From Promethearchaeia archaeon (GTDB lineage Archaea; Asgardarchaeota; Lokiarchaeia; Sigyniarchaeales; SOKP01): a stretch of DNA of 64,000 nucleotides. The DNA lies in the NCBI GenBank assembly GCA_029856145.1, contig JAHQWK010000001.1:448001-512000 (forward strand), read 5' to 3'. Position 1 is the stretch's first letter. Each line of letters opens with the position of its first letter. Shown piece after piece: positions 54,388 through 63,407 of the stretch. Position numbers and translations under genes: made by a program. The notes under the pieces are model-generated. The model saw only the letters and a program-made list of their open reading frames with translations, was not told where the DNA came from and did not search any database.

Positions 54388-55311
54388 TTAATCGGCCATA
54401 TTAGCATAATTTTGTAAATCCTTGACACGCATTCTCAGAGTAACTTCAGTAACCCTAGCTAATTTTGAAATTTCTTTTTGAGTTCGGTTCTCATTACAAA
54501 TTTTCGAACCAATATAAATAGCTGCTGCTGCTATCCCTTTAGGATCCTTTCCCGCCGAATTAAATCCACTTTCCCTAGCTTTTTCAATAATTTTAACAGC
54601 TATATTTCGACATTTCATAGATAGCTTTAATTCTTCATTAAATTTATCTACATAACGCTCACTAGAAAAGTGAGTCACTTTCAAACCTAATTTCGGCAAT
54701 ACTTCCATCAAAATTAAACGATAACTTTTGATCACTTTTTTTTTAGGAATTTGTGCAACTTTTGTAATCTCTTCGGCAGTTCTGGGTATTCCATGGACTC
54801 GTAAAGCCGCAAAAATCGAAGCTGATAATAGGGTATCAATACTACGACCCATTGTTAATTTCTTTTTTACTGTTTGAGTATAAATCCGAAGTGCATCCTC
54901 TGCAACCGCATCAGGAATTCCTAATCTCTTTTGTAAACGCTGTAAATTTGGTAAAGCAATCCATAAATTTCTTTCATAGCTAGTTGTTAGTGATCTATGT
55001 ATTTTAGCTAATCTATTGAACTTTGACTTATATTTTGGACTTAATAACGTACCTCTGGCATCTCTAGAACCTCTAATAATGGTTCTTGGGCCAATAGGAC
55101 TGTATACTCTCTCGTTACTTTTTCTTTTTTGGATTTCTTCTTGAGTAAAAGCTCTCCGAGGACTATCATCAAGAATACGAGAATATACAAATCCGCAATT
55201 TAAACACACATACCAGCCATCCTCTTCCGAAATTTTTGGGCTGTCACAGCAAGGGGGTCCTTCTTCGGTGCCATCTTCAAAAAAATCATCATCTTCAAAA
55301 TGTGCTGGCAT
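54388..55311 (-). CDS. tfb: Transcription initiation factor IIB
   Basis: Zn ribbon ...VCLNCG, RAF, ERNL..A, GRS, PRT..EI, GKDPKGIAAAAIY, TQKEI...VTEVTLR. Confidence 0.93.
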   Translation of the reverse strand: MPAHFEDDDFFEDGTEEGPPCCDSPKISEEDGWYVCLNCGFVYSRILDDSPRRAFTQEEIQKRKSNERVYSPIGPRTIIRGSRDARGTLLSPKYKSKFNRLAKIHRSLTTSYERNLWIALPNLQRLQKRLGIPDAVAEDALRIYTQTVKKKLTMGRSIDTLLSASIFAALRVHGIPRTAEEITKVAQIPKKKVIKSYRLILMEVLPKLGLKVTHFSSERYVDKFNEELKLSMKCRNIAVKIIEKARESGFNSAGKDPKGIAAAAIYIGSKICNENRTQKEISKLARVTEVTLRMRVKDLQNYANMAD

Positions 55312-55511
55312 AGTTTTTAAAATGCAAAAGGACGGTAATTGAATTTTTAATTTTTTTCCTTAGAAATACATAAATTAAAAAATATATAAGTGTAATCTAT
55401 TTCAAATTAACTTGTGAAAATTTATATCTTTATCTTTTTAACTAGTATAGTAATAAATAATAATAAAAATTAAATCAACCTATTAATAATAAAGAAAAAT
55501 CGTTATTTGTA

Positions 55512-56750
55512 ATGTCTACTGAAGTCTCTAGCTTGATAAAAGTCATCTCTAAATTTTTAGACCCGAAATCTGCTAAAGTTAGTAAATTAAAAGAAATTGA
55601 TGACATTTTAAAATTACATATTGATTCTTATAAATTTATTGATAAAGAAGAATTCACAATCATTAAGCAATTATTGGACATCACGACCATTGGAGATGCC
55701 TCAAAGTTAAATAAAGATGACCCGTTTGGGAGTCTTATTGAAATTGAAGAAACGGATGATTCTATAGAATTAGCAATAGACTTGCAGAAAAAAATTGAGG
55801 AATTAAAAGAAAAATACCCTTTTCTTGAAACTAAATTAAAGAAAACAGGCACAATTAGTTCACTTATTGCGAGTATTAAAGAGGAAAAAGAAGGAATAGA
55901 GATTAAAGGTCAAAAAGTTCTTGTATGTGGTTTAGACGCAGCTGGGAAAACATCATTGTTATCCAAATTTGGAGGACGTTTAGGAATAAGTGATATGATC
56001 GCAACACATCCAACAAAAGGAGTGGTACGAATGAAATTTGGCACTAGCAATTTGAATCTATTTATATGGGATTTGGGTGGTCAAGAGGAATATAGAGAAA
56101 GATATTTAAATAATCCAGAGCAATATTTTGTCCAATTGGATTTATTAATGTTTGTAATTGATGTACAGGATCCTGATAGATTTGAAGAATCTCTTCAATA
56201 TTTTGATAAGATAATAGATTCAATAATCTTGTTAGAGGAAACTCCCTATATATTAATATTCATTCATAAGTATGATCCTGATCTGAAAAATGACCCAAAA
56301 ATACTCTTAAATGTTGAACTTTTAAAGGATAACTTAAATGAACTTTTAAAAAGTAAAACGAGCGAATTTGAGCTTGAGATCTATTTAACATCAATATATT
56401 CTCTTATTTCTCGTGAACCTCAGTTTGCTAAATATATAAAGAATTTGATGAGTGCAAGTTCTTCTCTAACTGATCCGACAGTACGAAAAGTGGAGGGTCT
56501 TGGAAAGACTTTAGAAGAAACTTTGAATGCTGTAATTCGTTTATCAGAAAGTATTTCTATGCAACTCAGCGATCTTGATAATCGACTTCGAGCAATAGAG
56601 TCAGGAGCGTTTCAAGTTGCTCAAAGTGGTATTCCAATTGAAATTGCTAATCCCAATCAGCCAACCGCAAGGCGTCAAGAAAATGTACGTTTAAATGTCC
56701 TTAATGAGTTAAAAGATTTATTTAGCAAGAGGAAAAGTCTAGACCTTTAA
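55512..56750 (+). CDS. Multidomain Arf/Rag-like small GTPase (N-terminal HhH-like domain, C-terminal coiled coil)
   Basis: GLDAAGKTS, PTKG, WDLGGQ, HKYD, TSIY. Confidence 0.85.
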   Translation: MSTEVSSLIKVISKFLDPKSAKVSKLKEIDDILKLHIDSYKFIDKEEFTIIKQLLDITTIGDASKLNKDDPFGSLIEIEETDDSIELAIDLQKKIEELKEKYPFLETKLKKTGTISSLIASIKEEKEGIEIKGQKVLVCGLDAAGKTSLLSKFGGRLGISDMIATHPTKGVVRMKFGTSNLNLFIWDLGGQEEYRERYLNNPEQYFVQLDLLMFVIDVQDPDRFEESLQYFDKIIDSIILLEETPYILIFIHKYDPDLKNDPKILLNVELLKDNLNELLKSKTSEFELEIYLTSIYSLISREPQFAKYIKNLMSASSSLTDPTVRKVEGLGKTLEETLNAVIRLSESISMQLSDLDNRLRAIESGAFQVAQSGIPIEIANPNQPTARRQENVRLNVLNELKDLFSKRKSLDL

Positions 56751-56759
56751 ATCTTTAGC

Positions 56760-57479
56760 CTATTCTTTTTTAAAAGATTTCATAATCTTCTTATAGAATG
56801 TTAACAAAAAAATAGCAAAAAATATACTAATCGAGAGTAATAGATACCCTATATTACTAATCAACATTGTATTAATTTCTTGATATTGAATTTCATATGC
56901 TACAAACTGTTCTAAGTAGGTTAGCATTTTATATATTAGTGGACCGGTTAAATAGAGCGTTATTAAAAATCCTATTATACCAAAAATGCAACCAAATATG
57001 ACATCTGTAGGGTAATGCACACCAAGCTGAATTCTTGAAAATGAAACCATAATCACAAGTAAAAATAGTAAAATACAAATAATTGGTGATTTCGTAAAAA
57101 ACAAACCAAATAATAAACCTTGTGCCATAACATTATACGAATGCCACGACGGAAAACTTCTCGAAGTAGGTTTTCGTTCAAAAACAATTATTTCACCTTC
57201 TTCAAATCTTTCAAATGGCCTTTTTCTTTTTACTGTTTGTTTTATCACTAATATTAGAATTAATCCAGTAAGAAATGTAGCGGAGATATAGGCTAATAAA
57301 AAAGGATCATACCAAATAAATAAATAAAAAGCAATTAAGAAAAGCCATAAAGTTTCTCTTCCAAAAAAAGAAATAAATCTTAAAATGATTGTGAATGGTT
57401 TACCCCCTAAACCATTGTATTTCATAATAATTCTTTGGTCCCATTGGTCAATTCTATTTGAAAATTCTTTGAAATCCAT
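56760..57479 (-). CDS. PAP2-family membrane phosphatase
   Basis: K..VKRKRP, SFPS.H, SRIQLGVHYPTDV. Confidence 0.9.
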   Translation of the reverse strand: MDFKEFSNRIDQWDQRIIMKYNGLGGKPFTIILRFISFFGRETLWLFLIAFYLFIWYDPFLLAYISATFLTGLILILVIKQTVKRKRPFERFEEGEIIVFERKPTSRSFPSWHSYNVMAQGLLFGLFFTKSPIICILLFLLVIMVSFSRIQLGVHYPTDVIFGCIFGIIGFLITLYLTGPLIYKMLTYLEQFVAYEIQYQEINTMLISNIGYLLLSISIFFAIFLLTFYKKIMKSFKKE

Positions 57480-57502: not shown

Positions 57503-58297
57503 TTAATGTGGATTTAATAACTTATAAGCTTCAATCACTTTAGGGATTTGATCTTTAAAATAGTCTAATGAATGTGAATCAGATCCAACAAAAAATTCTA
57601 CTCCTTCTTTCCTTAACTGCTTCATAACACTCATGGATGGAAATGATCTATTTATTGGAAATCGCAATCCAGATAAATTTAATTCTACTTTTATTTTGTT
57701 TTTTATACATAGGCGACCTAAATCTATTACTCGATTATCAGATACATCACAATCATCTGTAGGTATGCAATCATTATTATTAATATAACGAAAGATAGTA
57801 TCAATATGACAGATATTTTTAAAAATTTGCGAGTTAATCATTTTTGTACTTAATTCAAAATAATTATCTATAATCTGTTTCATTGGAATTTTTTCTAACA
57901 ATTTTGTTAACCCCTCTCTTGTTGTAATGGGATATCCAATTATCCATTCGTGAATAGATCCTCCAATAAAATCAAATTCTTTCCCATAATCATCCATAAA
58001 TTCAATTAATTGAATCTCTTTACTCTCATAGTATTCAATTTCTAAGCCACTGAGTATGAAATCATATGTTTCTTTATATATATCGATCTCTTCAAGATAA
58101 TCATTAACTCTTCCATTATAAAAGGGATTAGTCTTGTCATTTTCCACATAATAAAGTTCATAATGGTCAAGAAAACAGACATTAATTTGGTGTTCTTCAG
58201 CAACTTTTATATAATCTTCAAAAGTAGGACCGTCTTGTGCCACATCTCCGCTCCAATTTCTAGTATGAACATGAAAATCTGTAAATTTAAACTTCAT
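57503..58297 (-). CDS. PHP-domain phosphatase (histidinol-phosphatase HisJ/HisK family)
   Basis: DFHVHT, DH, GLEIEY, GSIH, HID, GSDSH. Confidence 0.87.
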   Translation of the reverse strand: MKFKFTDFHVHTRNWSGDVAQDGPTFEDYIKVAEEHQINVCFLDHYELYYVENDKTNPFYNGRVNDYLEEIDIYKETYDFILSGLEIEYYESKEIQLIEFMDDYGKEFDFIGGSIHEWIIGYPITTREGLTKLLEKIPMKQIIDNYFELSTKMINSQIFKNICHIDTIFRYINNNDCIPTDDCDVSDNRVIDLGRLCIKNKIKVELNLSGLRFPINRSFPSMSVMKQLRKEGVEFFVGSDSHSLDYFKDQIPKVIEAYKLLNPH

Positions 58298-58346: not shown

Positions 58347-60236
58347 TCAACTAATTGAATCTTCTTTATCAAAAAAAACTCTGTAAAACAGTTCTTTTTC
58401 ACCTATATCTGGCGGAGTTATCTTAGTATAGCCTCCCTTATGAATAACACGAATTGTTTCTTTATTTTGAATGTGTATATTTCCATAGAATCCCTTTATA
58501 CCTTTTTCCTTAGCAACAATAATTATATGTTGATATAGAAATGTACCAATACCCTTTCCTCGATAATCTTCCCTAACTAAAAAGCTATATTCCGCCATAT
58601 TCATTTGAGGGTTTAAATAATATGTAGCACTTCCTATCATTTCTTCTTTTCCAATTTCCCCAATAAATGCTCCTAGTGAAAAAACATTATGATAATCAAT
58701 ATTAACTTCACTCTGAGTTTTTGAATGTGTGAATTCTTTTCTAAGCTCAAAAAATCGTAAATATCTATCTCTTTCATTTAATGAATAATACAATTCTTTA
58801 AGGACTTGTTCATCTGTAGTTTTAACAGGTCGAATATTAATTTTTTCTCTATCTCTTGTTGTATAAATGGTTTCGTATTCTGAAGGATATAAACAAATTC
58901 GACCATCATCATCACAAGGAAGCATCTGATCAGAAAATATATAATTCAATTTTTTAGCTTCGTCTAATAATGATTGTCGGAATTTTGGGTGAGCTATACA
59001 AATCAACTCAAGCACTCTTTCACGAATAGTTTTACCATGAAGGTATGCCACACCCCATTCAGTCACAATATAATGAACATCACCACGAGATAACAATATT
59101 CCTGCTCCTTCATCTAGATGAGGCACAATTCGTGATTTTTCACCATCTCTAGATGTTGAAGGTATTATTATAATGGGTTTTCCTCCTTTAGAAAATGCTG
59201 CACCCCTCATAAAATCAATAGTTTCACCTAATCCCGAATAAAAACTGTAACCCTCAGTAGCAGCATTTACTTGTCCAGTCAAATCAATTTGTCTAGCAGA
59301 ATTGACAGAGACCATTTTTTTATTCATTCCAATGTATCTAGGATTACATACATAATCAGATGGAAAAAATTCTATATAGGGATTATTGTCTACAAAATCA
59401 TATAATTTTTTTGTTCCTAAAGCAAAACTAGTAAGAATTTTTTCAGGATGGAAATTCTTTTTTCTACAAGTCAATACTCCGTTTTCAATGAGTGGTATTA
59501 CATTGTCTGTAATATAATGAGAATGCATTCCAAGATCTCTTTTATCCTTTAGAAATTTTAAGCTTGCATTTGGTAAGTCACCAAAACCTATATGAATCGT
59601 AGATTTATTTTCTATTATGTTTGCAAGATTTTTTCCGATTCTTTCAGCTATTTCATCAGGCTCATCAAAAATAAATTCTAATAACGGTGTGTCATTAAAG
59701 ACAAAAAAATCAATTTCTTTCATATGTATGAAACTATTTCCTAAAGTTCGCGGCATTTGTGGGTTAATTTCAACAATAGTGATATAGGATGATTGAGCTA
59801 TTGGCTTCGCAATATCTACATTAATCCCTAAAGAGCAAAAACCATAGGGATCTGGGGGAGAAACTTGTATAAGGGCAACATCGATATGTTTCTTACCAGT
59901 TAGAAATAAAGATGGAATTTCACTAGTAAAAATAGGTGTATAGTCTGCTTGACCTTTGTTAATTTCCTCTCTAAGAGTTTTTCCAATAAAAAATGCATTA
60001 TGTCTAAAGAGATCCTCTGCCTTATCCTTAAAATATTTTTCTGGACCTATAGTTAAGAAGTGAAGTATTTCAGTATCAATTAATTTCTCTGAGTGTTTAA
60101 TCAATTCTGATGTTAGTAACTGTGGCTCTGAACATCCAGAATCAATAAAAACTCTATTTCCAGGAATTATTTTTTTAATTGCTTCCTCTGCTGTTATTTC
60201 CTTATCTTTCCATTTTTCTCTCCAGTCTTCTTTCAT
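58347..60236 (-). CDS. Acetyl-CoA hydrolase/CoA-transferase-like domain fused to Pat-type GNAT acetyltransferase
   Basis: DVALIQVSPPD.YG..SLG, N..MPRT, DLTGQ, DF.RGA..SKGG, VTEWG.A.L.GK...ER; C-terminal IRP...S....YLRFF, AEYS, RGKGIG; GGTGA upstream of ATG 60236. Confidence 0.9.
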   Translation of the reverse strand: MKEDWREKWKDKEITAEEAIKKIIPGNRVFIDSGCSEPQLLTSELIKHSEKLIDTEILHFLTIGPEKYFKDKAEDLFRHNAFFIGKTLREEINKGQADYTPIFTSEIPSLFLTGKKHIDVALIQVSPPDPYGFCSLGINVDIAKPIAQSSYITIVEINPQMPRTLGNSFIHMKEIDFFVFNDTPLLEFIFDEPDEIAERIGKNLANIIENKSTIHIGFGDLPNASLKFLKDKRDLGMHSHYITDNVIPLIENGVLTCRKKNFHPEKILTSFALGTKKLYDFVDNNPYIEFFPSDYVCNPRYIGMNKKMVSVNSARQIDLTGQVNAATEGYSFYSGLGETIDFMRGAAFSKGGKPIIIIPSTSRDGEKSRIVPHLDEGAGILLSRGDVHYIVTEWGVAYLHGKTIRERVLELICIAHPKFRQSLLDEAKKLNYIFSDQMLPCDDDGRICLYPSEYETIYTTRDREKINIRPVKTTDEQVLKELYYSLNERDRYLRFFELRKEFTHSKTQSEVNIDYHNVFSLGAFIGEIGKEEMIGSATYYLNPQMNMAEYSFLVREDYRGKGIGTFLYQHIIIVAKEKGIKGFYGNIHIQNKETIRVIHKGGYTKITPPDIGEKELFYRVFFDKEDSIS

Positions 60237-60528
60237 AATATTAGATTTCACCTTTTATTCTAGTTTAATTTAATTCTTTAAAATATAAATATAATCTCCA
60301 GTCTCTTTATTAATTGTATTATCATCAATATAATGTTTTTGAAATTATAAATAAAATGTTTAAATTCAATTCTATATATCTCTCAATTGATTCAAATCTG
60401 TCCATTTAAATCTAAAAGGTTTAAATGTGATGTGTATAAAAAAAAATCTTTAAAATGGTTAAAGAATTTATTAAAATTAGAATTCTAAATAATATAAATT
60501 GACTGAAAATTTGTTTAAGTGAAGAATT

Positions 60529-62511
60529 ATGTCAGAAGAAGATAAGAAAATGGAAAGTATTCTAACAGAGACTCGTAAATTCGACCCAGTTAAACTAAAC
60601 GAGAAGTTTGCGAAAACTGGCATGTCTTTTGAAGAATATAAGAATCTATATAAGCAATCAATAGAAGATATGGAAGGTTTCTGGGGAGAACAAGCTAAAT
60701 CTCTTGATTGGTTCAAACCCTATGAAAAAGTTTGGGAAAAAACCGATCTATTTCCTGGTAAGTGGTTTATTGGCGGTAAACTTAACGTTGCTTACAATTG
60801 CCTTGATAGGCATGTAAAAAATGGAAAAGGTGATCAAGCAGCTCTTATTTGGGAAGCTGATGAGCCCGGACAGATTAAATCTTATACTTATAAAGAATTA
60901 CTTGCTGAAGTAAGTAAAACTGCAAATGCTATGAAAAAAGTTGGATTAAAAAAAGGCGATAGAGTCACAATTTGGCTTCCTATGATTCCTGAATTGGCAA
61001 TTATTATGTTAGCATGCGCTCGAATTGGCGTTATTCATTCAATTGTTTTTGGTGGCTTTTCTAAAGAAGCAGTAAAAGATAGAATTGAGGATTCTGATTC
61101 TCGATTACTCTTCACAAGTGATGAAACAGCACGTGCGGGTAAATTTTACCCCAAAATAGCTGATGTAGTCCAGATCATTAATGATGTACCAACGATTGAG
61201 CATGTCATTGTTGTAAAGCGAACTGGAAGAGACGTACCTCATACTGAAAAAGATATCTGGTATCACGACTTCATTGAAGGAATGAGTGAGGAATGTGAGC
61301 CTGAAATGATGGACTCTGAAGATACACTATTCATTCTTTATACAAGTGGAACTACTGGAAAACCCAAGGGCGTTAATCATACTACAGCAGGCTATATATT
61401 ATTTACATCTATTACCCATAAAATCGTATTTAATTACCATGAAGGTGATATCTGGTATTGTACTGCAGATATTGGTTGGATTACAGGTCATTCTTATATT
61501 GTATATGGACCTTTAGCTAATGGTGCTACTTCATTAATGTTTGAGGGAGTTCCAACTTATCCTGATGTTGATCGTTTCTGGGATATTGTAGAACGTCATA
61601 AAGTGACTCATTTCTATACAGCTCCTACTGCAATTCGTGCTATAATGAGATATGGTGATGATCATGTTAACAAGCATGATCTTAGTTCATTAAAAGTCCT
61701 AGGTACTGTTGGAGAACCTATAAATCCCGAAGCATGGACATGGTATCATAGAGTTGTTGGAAAAGAGAAATGTCCTATAGTTGATACTTACTGGCAAACT
61801 GAAACCGGGGGGTTTATTATGACCCCAATCGCTACAGCAACACCCACAAAACCTGGGTCTTGTTGTCTACCATTTTTAGGTATTAAACCAATCATTTTCG
61901 ATTTAGAAGGGGATGAAATTACAGAACCAAACGAAGGTGGATACTTTGCAATTGCTCAAAGTTGGCCGGGTATGTTACGTGATGTTTGGGGTGATACTGA
62001 GAGATTTAAATCAACTTATCTCGAAAAATATCCAGGATATTATTATACTGGTGATGGAGCACGACGAGATGAAGATGGTTATTATTGGATTTTAGGTAGA
62101 CTTGATGATGTTATTAAAGTATCTGGACATAGAATAGGAACCATGGAAGTAGAATCTGCTCTTGTAAGTCATCCAAAAGTAGCTGAAGCAGCAATTGCCC
62201 CATTTCCCCATAAAATTAAAGGGCAGGCAATATGGGCGTATGTTACTTTAATGCAAGGAGTTGAAAAATCTGCTAAATTATCCAAAGAAATTAGAATGCA
62301 TGTTAGACAAGAAATTGGGCCTGTATTTCAACCAGACGTTATTCAATTTGCTGATGCCTTGCCTAAGACGAGAAGTGGTAAGATAATGAGAAGAATATTA
62401 AAAGCTATTGCCGCTGGCACGAATATTGGAAATGTTACAACATTAGCTGATCCCTCTGTAGTAGATGCTTTACTTGAAGAACGTAAAAAGATGGATGTTG
62501 AAATAGGTTAA
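60529..62511 (+). CDS. acs: AMP-forming acetyl-CoA synthetase
   Basis: YTSGTTGKPKG, ADIGWITGH, VGEPIN, DTYWQTETG, GRLDD, LPKTRSGKIMRR. Confidence 0.97.
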   Translation: MSEEDKKMESILTETRKFDPVKLNEKFAKTGMSFEEYKNLYKQSIEDMEGFWGEQAKSLDWFKPYEKVWEKTDLFPGKWFIGGKLNVAYNCLDRHVKNGKGDQAALIWEADEPGQIKSYTYKELLAEVSKTANAMKKVGLKKGDRVTIWLPMIPELAIIMLACARIGVIHSIVFGGFSKEAVKDRIEDSDSRLLFTSDETARAGKFYPKIADVVQIINDVPTIEHVIVVKRTGRDVPHTEKDIWYHDFIEGMSEECEPEMMDSEDTLFILYTSGTTGKPKGVNHTTAGYILFTSITHKIVFNYHEGDIWYCTADIGWITGHSYIVYGPLANGATSLMFEGVPTYPDVDRFWDIVERHKVTHFYTAPTAIRAIMRYGDDHVNKHDLSSLKVLGTVGEPINPEAWTWYHRVVGKEKCPIVDTYWQTETGGFIMTPIATATPTKPGSCCLPFLGIKPIIFDLEGDEITEPNEGGYFAIAQSWPGMLRDVWGDTERFKSTYLEKYPGYYYTGDGARRDEDGYYWILGRLDDVIKVSGHRIGTMEVESALVSHPKVAEAAIAPFPHKIKGQAIWAYVTLMQGVEKSAKLSKEIRMHVRQEIGPVFQPDVIQFADALPKTRSGKIMRRILKAIAAGTNIGNVTTLADPSVVDALLEERKKMDVEIG

Positions 62512-62515
62512 ATTA

Positions 62516-62546
62516 TATTTTTATTTTATATTTTTTTTTAATTTTT
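62516..62546 (+). terminator. Oligo-T terminator region after acs
   Basis: Several T runs immediately after the acs stop codon. Confidence 0.4.
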
Positions 62547-62564
62547 AAAAAATCCAATTTTTCC

Positions 62565-63407
62565 TCAACCTTTTGCAAAAGTACCTATTATGTATAGTAA
62601 ATCTAATTCCTTATTAATATCTTTTCCCAATATCATCTTTACACTGGCTCTATTTTCTAGTTCAGTTAAATTGAACAATTCAAAAATCCTTTTTGGGAAG
62701 TATTGATGTTTAGCAATAATCATATGATCAGCTTCTAATGCAATACTCTTATTAATTATCTGTGATGCTGCATCTAAATTCGTGGCAATTAATGGGCCTA
62801 ACCGCTTATTCGCCACTAATCCATATCCTTCATTTTCAATAATTAAAATCCTAGCACCCAATTTAATTCTCATGGTTAAATAATTAGTTCTATTAAATCC
62901 CATTGCTTTCTTATCTAGAGCTAACACCCAGTCCGGAACTGTATTTAAAACCTTTACCTCTTTATTTGCAATTCCTAATTTTGGAGGTTGTATTGGTAAA
63001 TGATACATCACCCCATAAAATCTTCTTTTAAAACCAAATTTTTTATAGATGGGTTCTCCTAATTTGGAAGCATAAAGTATCATTGTCTCGCAATTCATTT
63101 TATTTGCAATTCCTACTAAATTTCTAAAAATTTCTGTGCCTACTCCTCTTCCTCTGTATTCTTTCAACACAACCATATATCCAAAACTACTAACTTTTTC
63201 AAATATAAAAACCCCACCCACACCAATAATCTTTCCTTTCTCTTCAGAAATAAGGAATTTTCCAATTTTCCATTTTATTAAAGCCTTCCATATTTTTTCT
63301 TCTTCTTGAATACTCGCTGGAGGAGCTCTACCAAAAGCAGAATAGAGTACATTTATACATTTGGAAATTTCTTCGTCTGCTGGTTCTCTAATAGTATATT
63401 TAAACAT
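62565..63407 (-). CDS. GNAT-family acetyltransferase with YitH-like C-terminal domain
   Basis: V..EYRGRGVG, L.AS..G.PIYKKFGF; LD...GF.R...L, R.GPL.A. Confidence 0.85.
   Translation of the reverse strand: MFKYTIREPADEEISKCINVLYSAFGRAPPASIQEEEKIWKALIKWKIGKFLISEEKGKIIGVGGVFIFEKVSSFGYMVVLKEYRGRGVGTEIFRNLVGIANKMNCETMILYASKLGEPIYKKFGFKRRFYGVMYHLPIQPPKLGIANKEVKVLNTVPDWVLALDKKAMGFNRTNYLTMRIKLGARILIIENEGYGLVANKRLGPLIATNLDAASQIINKSIALEADHMIIAKHQYFPKRIFELFNLTELENRASVKMILGKDINKELDLLYIIGTFAKG

Follow-up and report, generated by a model that had tools for sequence, protein, structure and literature searches.

Switching off acetyl-CoA synthetase (Acs) by acetylation of its active-site lysine is a control conserved from bacteria to mammals. 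In the acetyltransferases Pat and PatZ of Salmonella and Escherichia coli, the GNAT domain shares its chain with a regulatory domain that is an inactivated enzyme, namely an ADP-forming synthetase, which binds acetyl-CoA with high affinity, confers cooperativity and helps to form the groove that binds Acs (PMC8556138; PMC12184503). In Bacillus subtilis, the acsA/acuABC locus encodes the writer AcuA and the HDAC-type eraser AcuC, with acs divergent from the writer gene (PMC11255334). Here, a stretch of 64,000 nucleotides from a Promethearchaeia archaeon of the Asgardarchaeota (GenBank assembly GCA_029856145.1, contig JAHQWK010000001.1, positions 448,001 to 512,000; hereafter the window) was analyzed, in which acs lies head-to-head with a gene encoding a CoA-transferase-like domain fused to a Pat-type GNAT domain. 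The encoded fusion protein most probably represents a kind of on/off switch for acetate activation that has not been described before. On a modest balance of probability, we read it as a Pat-like protein lysine acetyltransferase for the adjacent Acs, in which a CoA-binding body that is no longer a transferase gates the GNAT domain.

The window protein belongs to the same GNAT subgroup as Pat/PatZ and Streptomyces lividans PatA and has their N-terminal extension, catalytic Glu and acetyl-CoA loop; as with Pat/PatZ, a large, catalytically disabled acyl-CoA-enzyme domain lies in the same chain and the Acs carries the PKTRSGK lysine. However, the large domain has the class I CoA-transferase fold (PF02550 and PF13336) in place of the ADP-forming acyl-CoA-synthetase-like fold, the protein is shorter (634 against about 890 amino acids), and most of its fusion relatives keep an apparently active transferase site. 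The locus resembles acsA/acuABC of B. subtilis in the divergence of acs from the writer gene and in the HDAC-family gene that follows the writer in one early-branching orthologous locus (L025) and in 14 of 54 loci from diverse groups. In contrast, the writer here is a Pat-type GNAT with a 440-amino-acid domain, where B. subtilis has the small AcuA; AcuB is absent, and in the window a HisJ-family PHP phosphoesterase gene follows the writer instead of a deacetylase gene.

The CoA-transferase-like domain and the GNAT domain

The two-domain fold of class I CoA-transferases was detected in the fusion with Pfam E values of 2e-28 (PF02550) and 3e-59 (PF13336), with AcetylCoA_hydro at residues 10-187, AcetylCoA_hyd_C at 279-432 and GNAT at 471-608. 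The start codon is GTG as listed, and an alternative ATG is found at residue 6 (60234-60236). The AlphaFold2 model of the 634-amino-acid protein was confident (predicted local distance difference test score, 91; predicted template modelling score, 0.88), and Foldseek with its first 440 residues returned template modelling (TM) scores of 0.93-0.95 against 3gk7 and 2oas. HMMER alignments to the solved 4-hydroxybutyrate CoA-transferases 9vag, 3eh7 and 3gk7 gave E values of 1e-100 to 1e-116 (best 7e-116), and the positions that are invariant across the family outside the reaction centre were kept. The described enzymes AbfT (3GK7), RipA, 2OAS and AarC share this fold over 430 amino acids at 33-40% identity and TM 0.93-0.95, but the window protein has His, Glu/Asp, Cys and His for their Glu, Gly, Asn and Gln, and a GNAT domain is fused at its C-terminus.

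The HMMER alignments paired LGMHSHY with LG(I/V)H(S/T)E, GLGETIDF with G.GGQ.DF, IHIGFG with LQ.GIG and DYVCNP with DY(V/I)N(D/H)P, so that neither the catalytic Glu of H(S/T)E, nor the oxyanion-hole Gly of GGQxDF, nor the Asn of DYVNDP is kept in the motif alignment of the window protein. An earlier, sequence-only reading of this locus had proposed a Pat-type fusion in which DLGMHSHY, GETIDF and IHIGFG replace the active-site motifs of an otherwise conserved transferase fold; the architecture, the three altered motifs and the intact remainder were all borne out, with His245 falling on the catalytic Glu of each of the three solved enzymes. In AarC, Glu294 is the nucleophile, the amide of Gly388 forms an external oxyanion hole that is strictly conserved in the superfamily, Asn347 forms the internal oxyanion hole and buttresses and orients Glu294, and Gln267, Glu294, Gly388 and Phe392 all lie within about 4 Å of one atom of the bound ligand (PMC4876117). 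The AarC spacings Gln267-Val270 (+3), Asn347-Gly388 (+41) and Gly388-Phe392 (+4) are identical to His220-Phe223, Cys302-Glu343 and Glu343-Phe347 of the window protein, and the RipA spacing Val227-Glu249 (+22) is identical to Phe223-His245. From the motif alignment and these spacings, His220, His245, Cys302 and Glu343 would correspond to AarC Gln267, Glu294, Asn347 and Gly388, and on this mapping each of the four reaction-centre positions is replaced. Because the Glu nucleophile and the oxyanion-hole Gly and Asn are among them, the class I ping-pong reaction should no longer be possible in the N-terminal domain.

The replacements are conserved. In 141 orthologues (69-94% identical), His243 and Cys302 were found in every sequence, position 343 was always acidic with both Glu and Asp common, His220 was present in 140, and His245 was present in 135, being Tyr in four and Leu in two. 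The mean frequency of the commonest residue was 0.864 in the transferase-like domain and 0.858 in the GNAT domain; together with the conserved replacements, this indicates that the former is not decaying and is under the same constraint as the GNAT domain. All ten stand-alone transferases sampled keep Gln/His/Glu/Asn/Gly/Gln, and the Asn at the position of Cys302 is found in 93 of 111 rows (83 of 101 Glu-keeping fusions and the ten stand-alone enzymes).

In the C-terminal part, the Pat-like motifs pointed out earlier are present, namely YLRFF (497-501), AEYS (553-556) and the acetyl-CoA loop RGKGIG (564-569), within a Pfam Acetyltransf_1 match. Glu554 (codon 58590-58592) was aligned with S. 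lividans PatA E123 and E. coli PatZ E809, both of which have been named as catalytic (PMC12184503). The closest solved GNAT domains were those of S. lividans PatA (4nxy and 4u5y, one of them crystallised with Acs; E 8e-15 to about 1e-14), and further solved matches were E. coli PatZ (9it0, E 3.5e-12) and the Pat proteins of S. solfataricus and M. tuberculosis (3f8k, 4orf). These alignments begin at about residue 455, some 20 residues ahead of the GNAT core, as in Pat. Among the titled PDB matches of the GNAT part (E ≤ 1e-3) no AcuA chain was found, and all were of the Pat family except one phosphinothricin-acetyltransferase-like GNAT. The fusion scored 47.7 bits against the NCBIfam Pat model (cut-off 460); judged from these matches, its GNAT domain is a relative of the Pat GNAT and not an orthologue of a named Pat. 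The coordinates of all features are given in Table 1.

Table 1. Features of the fusion and acs locus, in window coordinates
Feature	Position	Strand	Basis
CoA-transferase-like::Pat-type GNAT fusion gene, 634 amino acids	58347..60251	-	Open reading frame list, translation, Pfam/NCBIfam, AlphaFold2 model
4-Hydroxybutyrate-CoA-transferase-fold domain, residues ~9-440, without the transferase reaction-centre residues	58932..60227	-	PDB matches, Foldseek
His220 codon CAT, replacing Gln of LQxGIG (AarC Gln267 by spacing)	59592..59594	-	Alignment
His245 codon CAT, replacing the Glu nucleophile (3GK7 Glu238, RipA Glu249, AarC Glu294)	59517..59519	-	Alignment to 9vag, 3eh7, 3gk7
Cys302 codon TGT, replacing Asn of DYVNDP (AarC Asn347, internal oxyanion hole, by spacing)	59346..59348	-	Alignment
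Glu343 codon GAA, replacing second Gly of GGQxDF (AarC Gly388, external oxyanion hole)	59223..59225	-	Alignment
Pat-type GNAT with N-terminal extension, residues ~441-612	58416..58931	-	Solved-structure matches
Divergent intergenic region, AT-rich	60252..60528	.	Sequence; alignment of 12 orthologous intergenic regions
acs, AMP-forming acetyl-CoA synthetase, 660 amino acids, proposed target	60529..62511	+	Pfam full Acs; NCBIfam
Second GNAT gene, 280 amino acids	62565..63407	-	Pfam GNAT

Descent from intact-site fusions and recurrence of the changes

As had been anticipated, similar fusions occur in anaerobic bacteria. When a single genome of each species was searched, 80 full-length fusions came to light, distributed over Desulfobacterota, Planctomycetota, Verrucomicrobiota, Acidobacteriota, Chloroflexota, Spirochaetota, Nitrospirota, Bathyarchaeia, Thermoplasmatota and others; the architecture is found in anaerobes of more than 15 phyla, most members keep the Glu, and databases name them 'GNAT family N-acetyltransferase' or 'acyl-CoA hydrolase/GNAT superfamily N-acetyltransferase'. 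In 400 genomes of the archaeal phylum, remodelled fusions of 69% identity or more were confined to the family of the window, and intact-site fusions with 41-54% identity were present in several other families. An intact-site paralogue of 635 amino acids lies in the same genome and on the same contig, 364 kb upstream (locus L001; G000:C9:142478-144277, minus strand), with the motifs IQMGIG, DLGVHSEV and GIGGQVDF and the Asn retained. A tree of 192 sequences placed the remodelled Asgard clade, together with its sister P0124, inside the Asgard intact-site fusions with 100% local support, a placement that was also examined by IQ-TREE on 48 rows. Among the fusions, no fewer than 15 switches between Glu and non-Glu were required. 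The remodelled domain is therefore a derived special case that descended from intact-site fusions.

These direct ancestors have the same two-domain architecture and length but keep Gln/Glu/Asn/Gly-Gln, and they usually stand in a cassette of ADP-forming synthetase, fusion and HDAC, not head-to-head with acs. To judge by their motifs, the intact-site fusions, including the paralogue in the same genome, are probably active transferases, and this majority probably has another function, which may be CoA transfer coupled to acetylation. The neighbours of the paralogue L001 are themselves conserved (radical SAM, HhH-GPD glycosylase, TatD, SCP2 and a thymidylate-synthase-like gene), none of them belonging to the acetate node. 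In another family of the phylum, two tandem intact-site fusions of the EEGQ type stand beside an MFS transporter gene, with acs (56% identity) 2.4 kb away (locus L030; G319:C1:1798742-1802534). An extension of the remodelled clade into the sister families f2 and f3 was considered and rejected: their four best matches all keep GGQ, and three show the catalytic Glu, the Glu motif of the fourth (L131) not being read by the motif scan.

Two of the changes recur in bacteria. In a Desulfobacterales clade of 27 sequences, the Glu is replaced by Gln or His and GGQ by GDQ; this clade is distant from the remodelled Asgard clade in both trees, and forcing the two together cost 72 log-likelihood units (approximately unbiased (AU) test, p 7e-5). 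The grouping was named after inspection of the tree; the trait columns were retained, which favours joining the clades. Of 182 fusions, 101 have both the Glu and the Gly, 51 have lost the Glu and carry Asp or Glu in the Gly column, and none combines the Glu with Asp or Glu there. The counts and the AU test together show that a carboxylate is gained in the oxyanion loop when the nucleophile is lost, and that this coupled change arose at least twice. The Asgard clade differs from the Desulfobacterales clade in the addition of Cys302 and His220. Two readings fit the coupling: a compensating polar plug in an unreactive site, or a relocated carboxylate that keeps some chemistry. The sequence-only reading had treated the domain as a dead sensor; the canonical nucleophile is indeed lost, but since the replaced residues are near-invariant and two of the changes recur in Desulfobacterales, a dead sensor is only one of the possible readings.

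In another reading, which we consider unlikely, the reaction centre has been rebuilt as a different catalytic site, so that the protein would be bifunctional and may still act on Acs. Either the carboxylate would have moved from HSE to the oxyanion loop (Glu/Asp343) and support CoA transfer or acyl-CoA hydrolysis, or Cys302, a His and an acid would form a triad that accepts the acyl group in thioester form; acyl groups could, for example, be consumed or handed over beside the GNAT domain. Glutaconate CoA-transferase becomes a hydrolase on a Glu-to-Asp change, which counts in favour of such a conversion, as do the strict confinement of the acidic residue to fusions without the Glu and the repeated, independent origin of the pair. 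Likewise, the invariant Cys302, Glu/Asp343 and His243 and the almost invariant His220 look like parts of a working site, and the AarC residues to which the replacements map by spacing cluster at the ligand (PMC4876117), but position 343 accepts Asp as readily as Glu, an unusual tolerance if it held a nucleophile in exact position, and His245 itself varies, with Tyr or Leu in six of the 141 sequences. In 12 fusions the nucleophile is changed from Glu to Asp, and four of these (P0146, P0153, P0174 and P0183) also show the Asn-to-Cys change of the Asgard clade, a recurrence that speaks for a rebuilt site; the Desulfobacterales clade, on the other hand, has Gln at the nucleophile and keeps Asn302 without any Cys, so that no single new chemistry fits both clades.

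A variant that we hold to be rather unlikely keeps the regulatory role and makes the rebuilt centre a Cys-His-acid site (Cys302, His220/His243, perhaps with His245, and Glu/Asp343) that forms a covalent bond with an acyl group or with the CoA thiol, or else a metal or redox site of His, Cys and carboxylate. If so, it would report the acyl-CoA, CoA-thiol or redox state to the GNAT domain by a mechanism new for protein acetyltransferases, and the Glu loss and Gly-to-Asp change of Desulfobacterales would be a second, partly parallel solution.

Linkage to acs, acyl-CoA synthetases and deacetylases

The remodelled fusion is accompanied by acs. The Acs of the window scored 992 bits against the NCBIfam acetate--CoA ligase model (cut-off 657) and is the sole true Acs of the genome, the next ligase being 31% identical; as claimed from the sequence alone, its gene is divergent from the fusion and retains the target lysine, Lys618 of PKTRSGK (codon 62380-62382). 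Among 20 orthologous loci from nine genera, acs stands beside the fusion in 19, and the 20th ends at a contig edge; counted over the remodelled clade, 20 of 21 loci are acs-adjacent. The pair is mostly divergent and 136-2000 bp apart, is convergent in L023, and persists in L021 and L025, where the other conserved neighbours have been lost. One genome (G164) that had been taken to lack the fusion was rejected as such a case, as its contig ends 24 bp beyond acs. Searches of genus g6, which belongs to the same family (four genomes, 89-100% complete), detected neither the fusion (E ≤ 1e-30) nor Acs (E ≤ 1e-20), which amounts to a single event of co-absence.

Within the spacer between the fusion and acs, a conserved block was found between positions 60330 and 60364 (AATGTTT... 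TTATAAATAAAATGTTTAAA). It comprises AATGTTT, TTATAAATA and AAATGTTTAAA in this order, with a TATA-like box between repeated AATGTTT words, and is retained in most orthologous spacers despite lengths of 136 to about 2000 bp. The block is a candidate shared promoter or operator of the two genes.

Neighbours were then clustered with no prior choice of partner, from 120 loci and all open reading frames lying up to 6 kb from the fusion. The largest cluster, present in 38 loci, was that of the AMP-forming Acs/ligases; it took in 20 of the 21 remodelled Asgard loci and two other Asgard loci, 12 of the 54 diverse loci and 4 of the 26 from Desulfobacterales. The second cluster, an ADP-forming acyl-CoA synthetase of about 700 amino acids, was present in 26 loci, 24 of them among the diverse loci, where it usually abuts the fusion; the next partner found across groups was an HDAC-family deacetylase (14 of the 54 diverse loci, L031 and L025). 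At least one of these three partners lies within 6 kb in 33 of the 54 diverse loci, and about 11 of them have a true acs no more than 10 kb away, whereas by a rough estimate some 0.5% would be expected for a gene taken at random. A recurrent operon contains the ADP-forming synthetase, the fusion and the HDAC gene, with acs often a few kb away. The association of the fusion with acs is thus not specific to Asgard archaea but occurs in many phyla, where it includes the ADP-forming acyl-CoA synthetase. At four Desulfobacula/Desulfotignum loci (L061, L062, L063 and L067), an AMP-forming ligase 29-33% identical to Acs is convergent with the fusion at a distance of 40 bp or less, which suggests that the partner at these loci of the Desulfobacterales clade is a different acyl-CoA synthetase.

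An eraser was sought as well. In L025, which branches early within the remodelled clade, three genes stand in a row as in acsA/acuABC of B. subtilis: the HDAC gene, directly downstream of the fusion, then the fusion itself and acs, divergent from it. The genome of the window encodes an orthologue of this HDAC with 65% identity at an unlinked position (G000:C31:14341-15519), and three Sir2 genes and two further HDAC-family loci elsewhere; in the window itself, no HDAC-type eraser was found in the operon of the writer. The gene 49 bp downstream of the fusion (57503-58297, minus strand, 264 amino acids) was considered as a degenerate deacetylase, but this was rejected: it was assigned to the HisJ-family PHP phosphoesterases on a TIGR01856 score of 83 bits (cut-off 90) and a match to the histidinol phosphatase 2yxo (E 2e-6), and was missed by Pfam. 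It follows the fusion in 17 of the 21 clade loci, at the position that the HDAC gene takes in L025.

Further genes around the pair do not appear to belong to an acetylation module. The second GNAT gene does converge on acs in the window, as had been noted, but the view that it is part of a conserved module failed, as it adjoins acs only in some close relatives and is elsewhere 4-5 kb off or absent. Its product matched Acetyltransf_9/7/1 with an Acetyltransf_18 tail and none of the Pat-type models, and a role as second writer was rejected because it is neither Pat-type nor a conserved neighbour. The genes for TFB, an extended Arf/Rag-like GTPase and PAP2 (54388-57479) are syntenic with the fusion in most genera of the family but show no such synteny beyond it, a pattern that resembles inherited gene order.

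Proposed function and its alternatives

In the explanation that we favour, the C-terminal GNAT domain, through Glu554 and the acetyl-CoA loop, would acetylate Lys618 of the adjacent and only Acs, and this would shut off ATP-consuming acetate activation when acetyl-CoA is plentiful. Gene linkage is what points to Acs as the substrate. Since ADP-forming acyl-CoA synthetase genes are also present in the genome, an Acs without such a gate could run an ATP-costing futile acetate cycle. The N-terminal body would act like the inactive ADP-forming-synthetase-like domain of Pat/PatZ: by this analogy, its rebuilt pocket would bind CoA or an acyl-CoA non-covalently and gate the GNAT domain or help to shape its substrate site. 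The mark could be removed by the unlinked HDAC-type deacetylase or by one of the three Sir2 gene products.

Several points weigh against this explanation. The near-invariant His220, Cys302 and Glu/Asp343 resemble a working site more than a passive pocket. In the same genomes, acs lies away from the intact-site paralogue, and the Desulfobacterales clade, with the same paired changes, is near an AMP-forming ligase in only 4 of 26 loci. In addition, the whole surroundings of about 10 kb (TFB, GTPase, PAP2 and PHP genes) are syntenic within the archaeal family, so that common descent of the gene order accounts for part of the adjacency to acs.

The last of these points has its fullest consequence if the fusion acetylates other proteins or a small amine and stands beside acs by inheritance, with no functional coupling. 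Pat-family enzymes do have several substrates, the neighbours of the intact-site paralogue are unrelated (radical SAM, HhH-GPD, TatD), and in about 40% of the diverse loci all three acetate-node partners are missing from the surrounding 6 kb. We nevertheless regard this as improbable: acs remains adjacent through loss of the neighbourhood or change of orientation (L021, L023 and L025), its partnership recurs in unrelated phyla far above the roughly estimated expectation given above, and an HDAC-type eraser gene travels with the fusion. Very improbable is an N-terminal domain that merely serves the GNAT domain as a structural or oligomerisation scaffold, binding no ligand and catalysing nothing; in its favour are the loss of the catalytic residues, the dimers and tetramers that 4-hydroxybutyrate CoA-transferases build (RipA, PMC3180442) and the dependence of Pat activity on oligomerisation (PMC8556138), but a scaffold neither needs near-invariant replacements exactly at the old reaction centre nor leads one to expect the same paired changes to evolve twice.

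The favoured explanation, a Pat-like writer gated by a former CoA-transferase, would add to the described acetyltransferases. A 2021 review of bacterial lysine acetyltransferases distinguishes types I-V (ADP-forming-synthetase-like, cAMP, ACT, NADP, none and tandem GNAT), and a CoA-transferase regulatory domain is not among them, CoA transferase being mentioned only as a metabolic enzyme (PMC8556138); the earlier suggestion that this type of sensor is new agrees with that classification. No description of a CoA-transferase-GNAT acetyltransferase was found in the literature searched on GNAT and Pat fusions. As the architecture is widespread and absent from the type I-V scheme, a class of regulators at the acetate/acetyl-CoA node may have been overlooked. 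Asgard archaea are the closest prokaryotic relatives of eukaryotes, and to our knowledge no Acs writer has been identified in them so far; the locus supplies a concrete candidate writer, target and eraser for the control of Asgard Acs. With intact and remodelled paralogues in one genome and a convergent clade in bacteria, the family also offers a natural experiment on how an enzyme fold becomes a regulatory domain.

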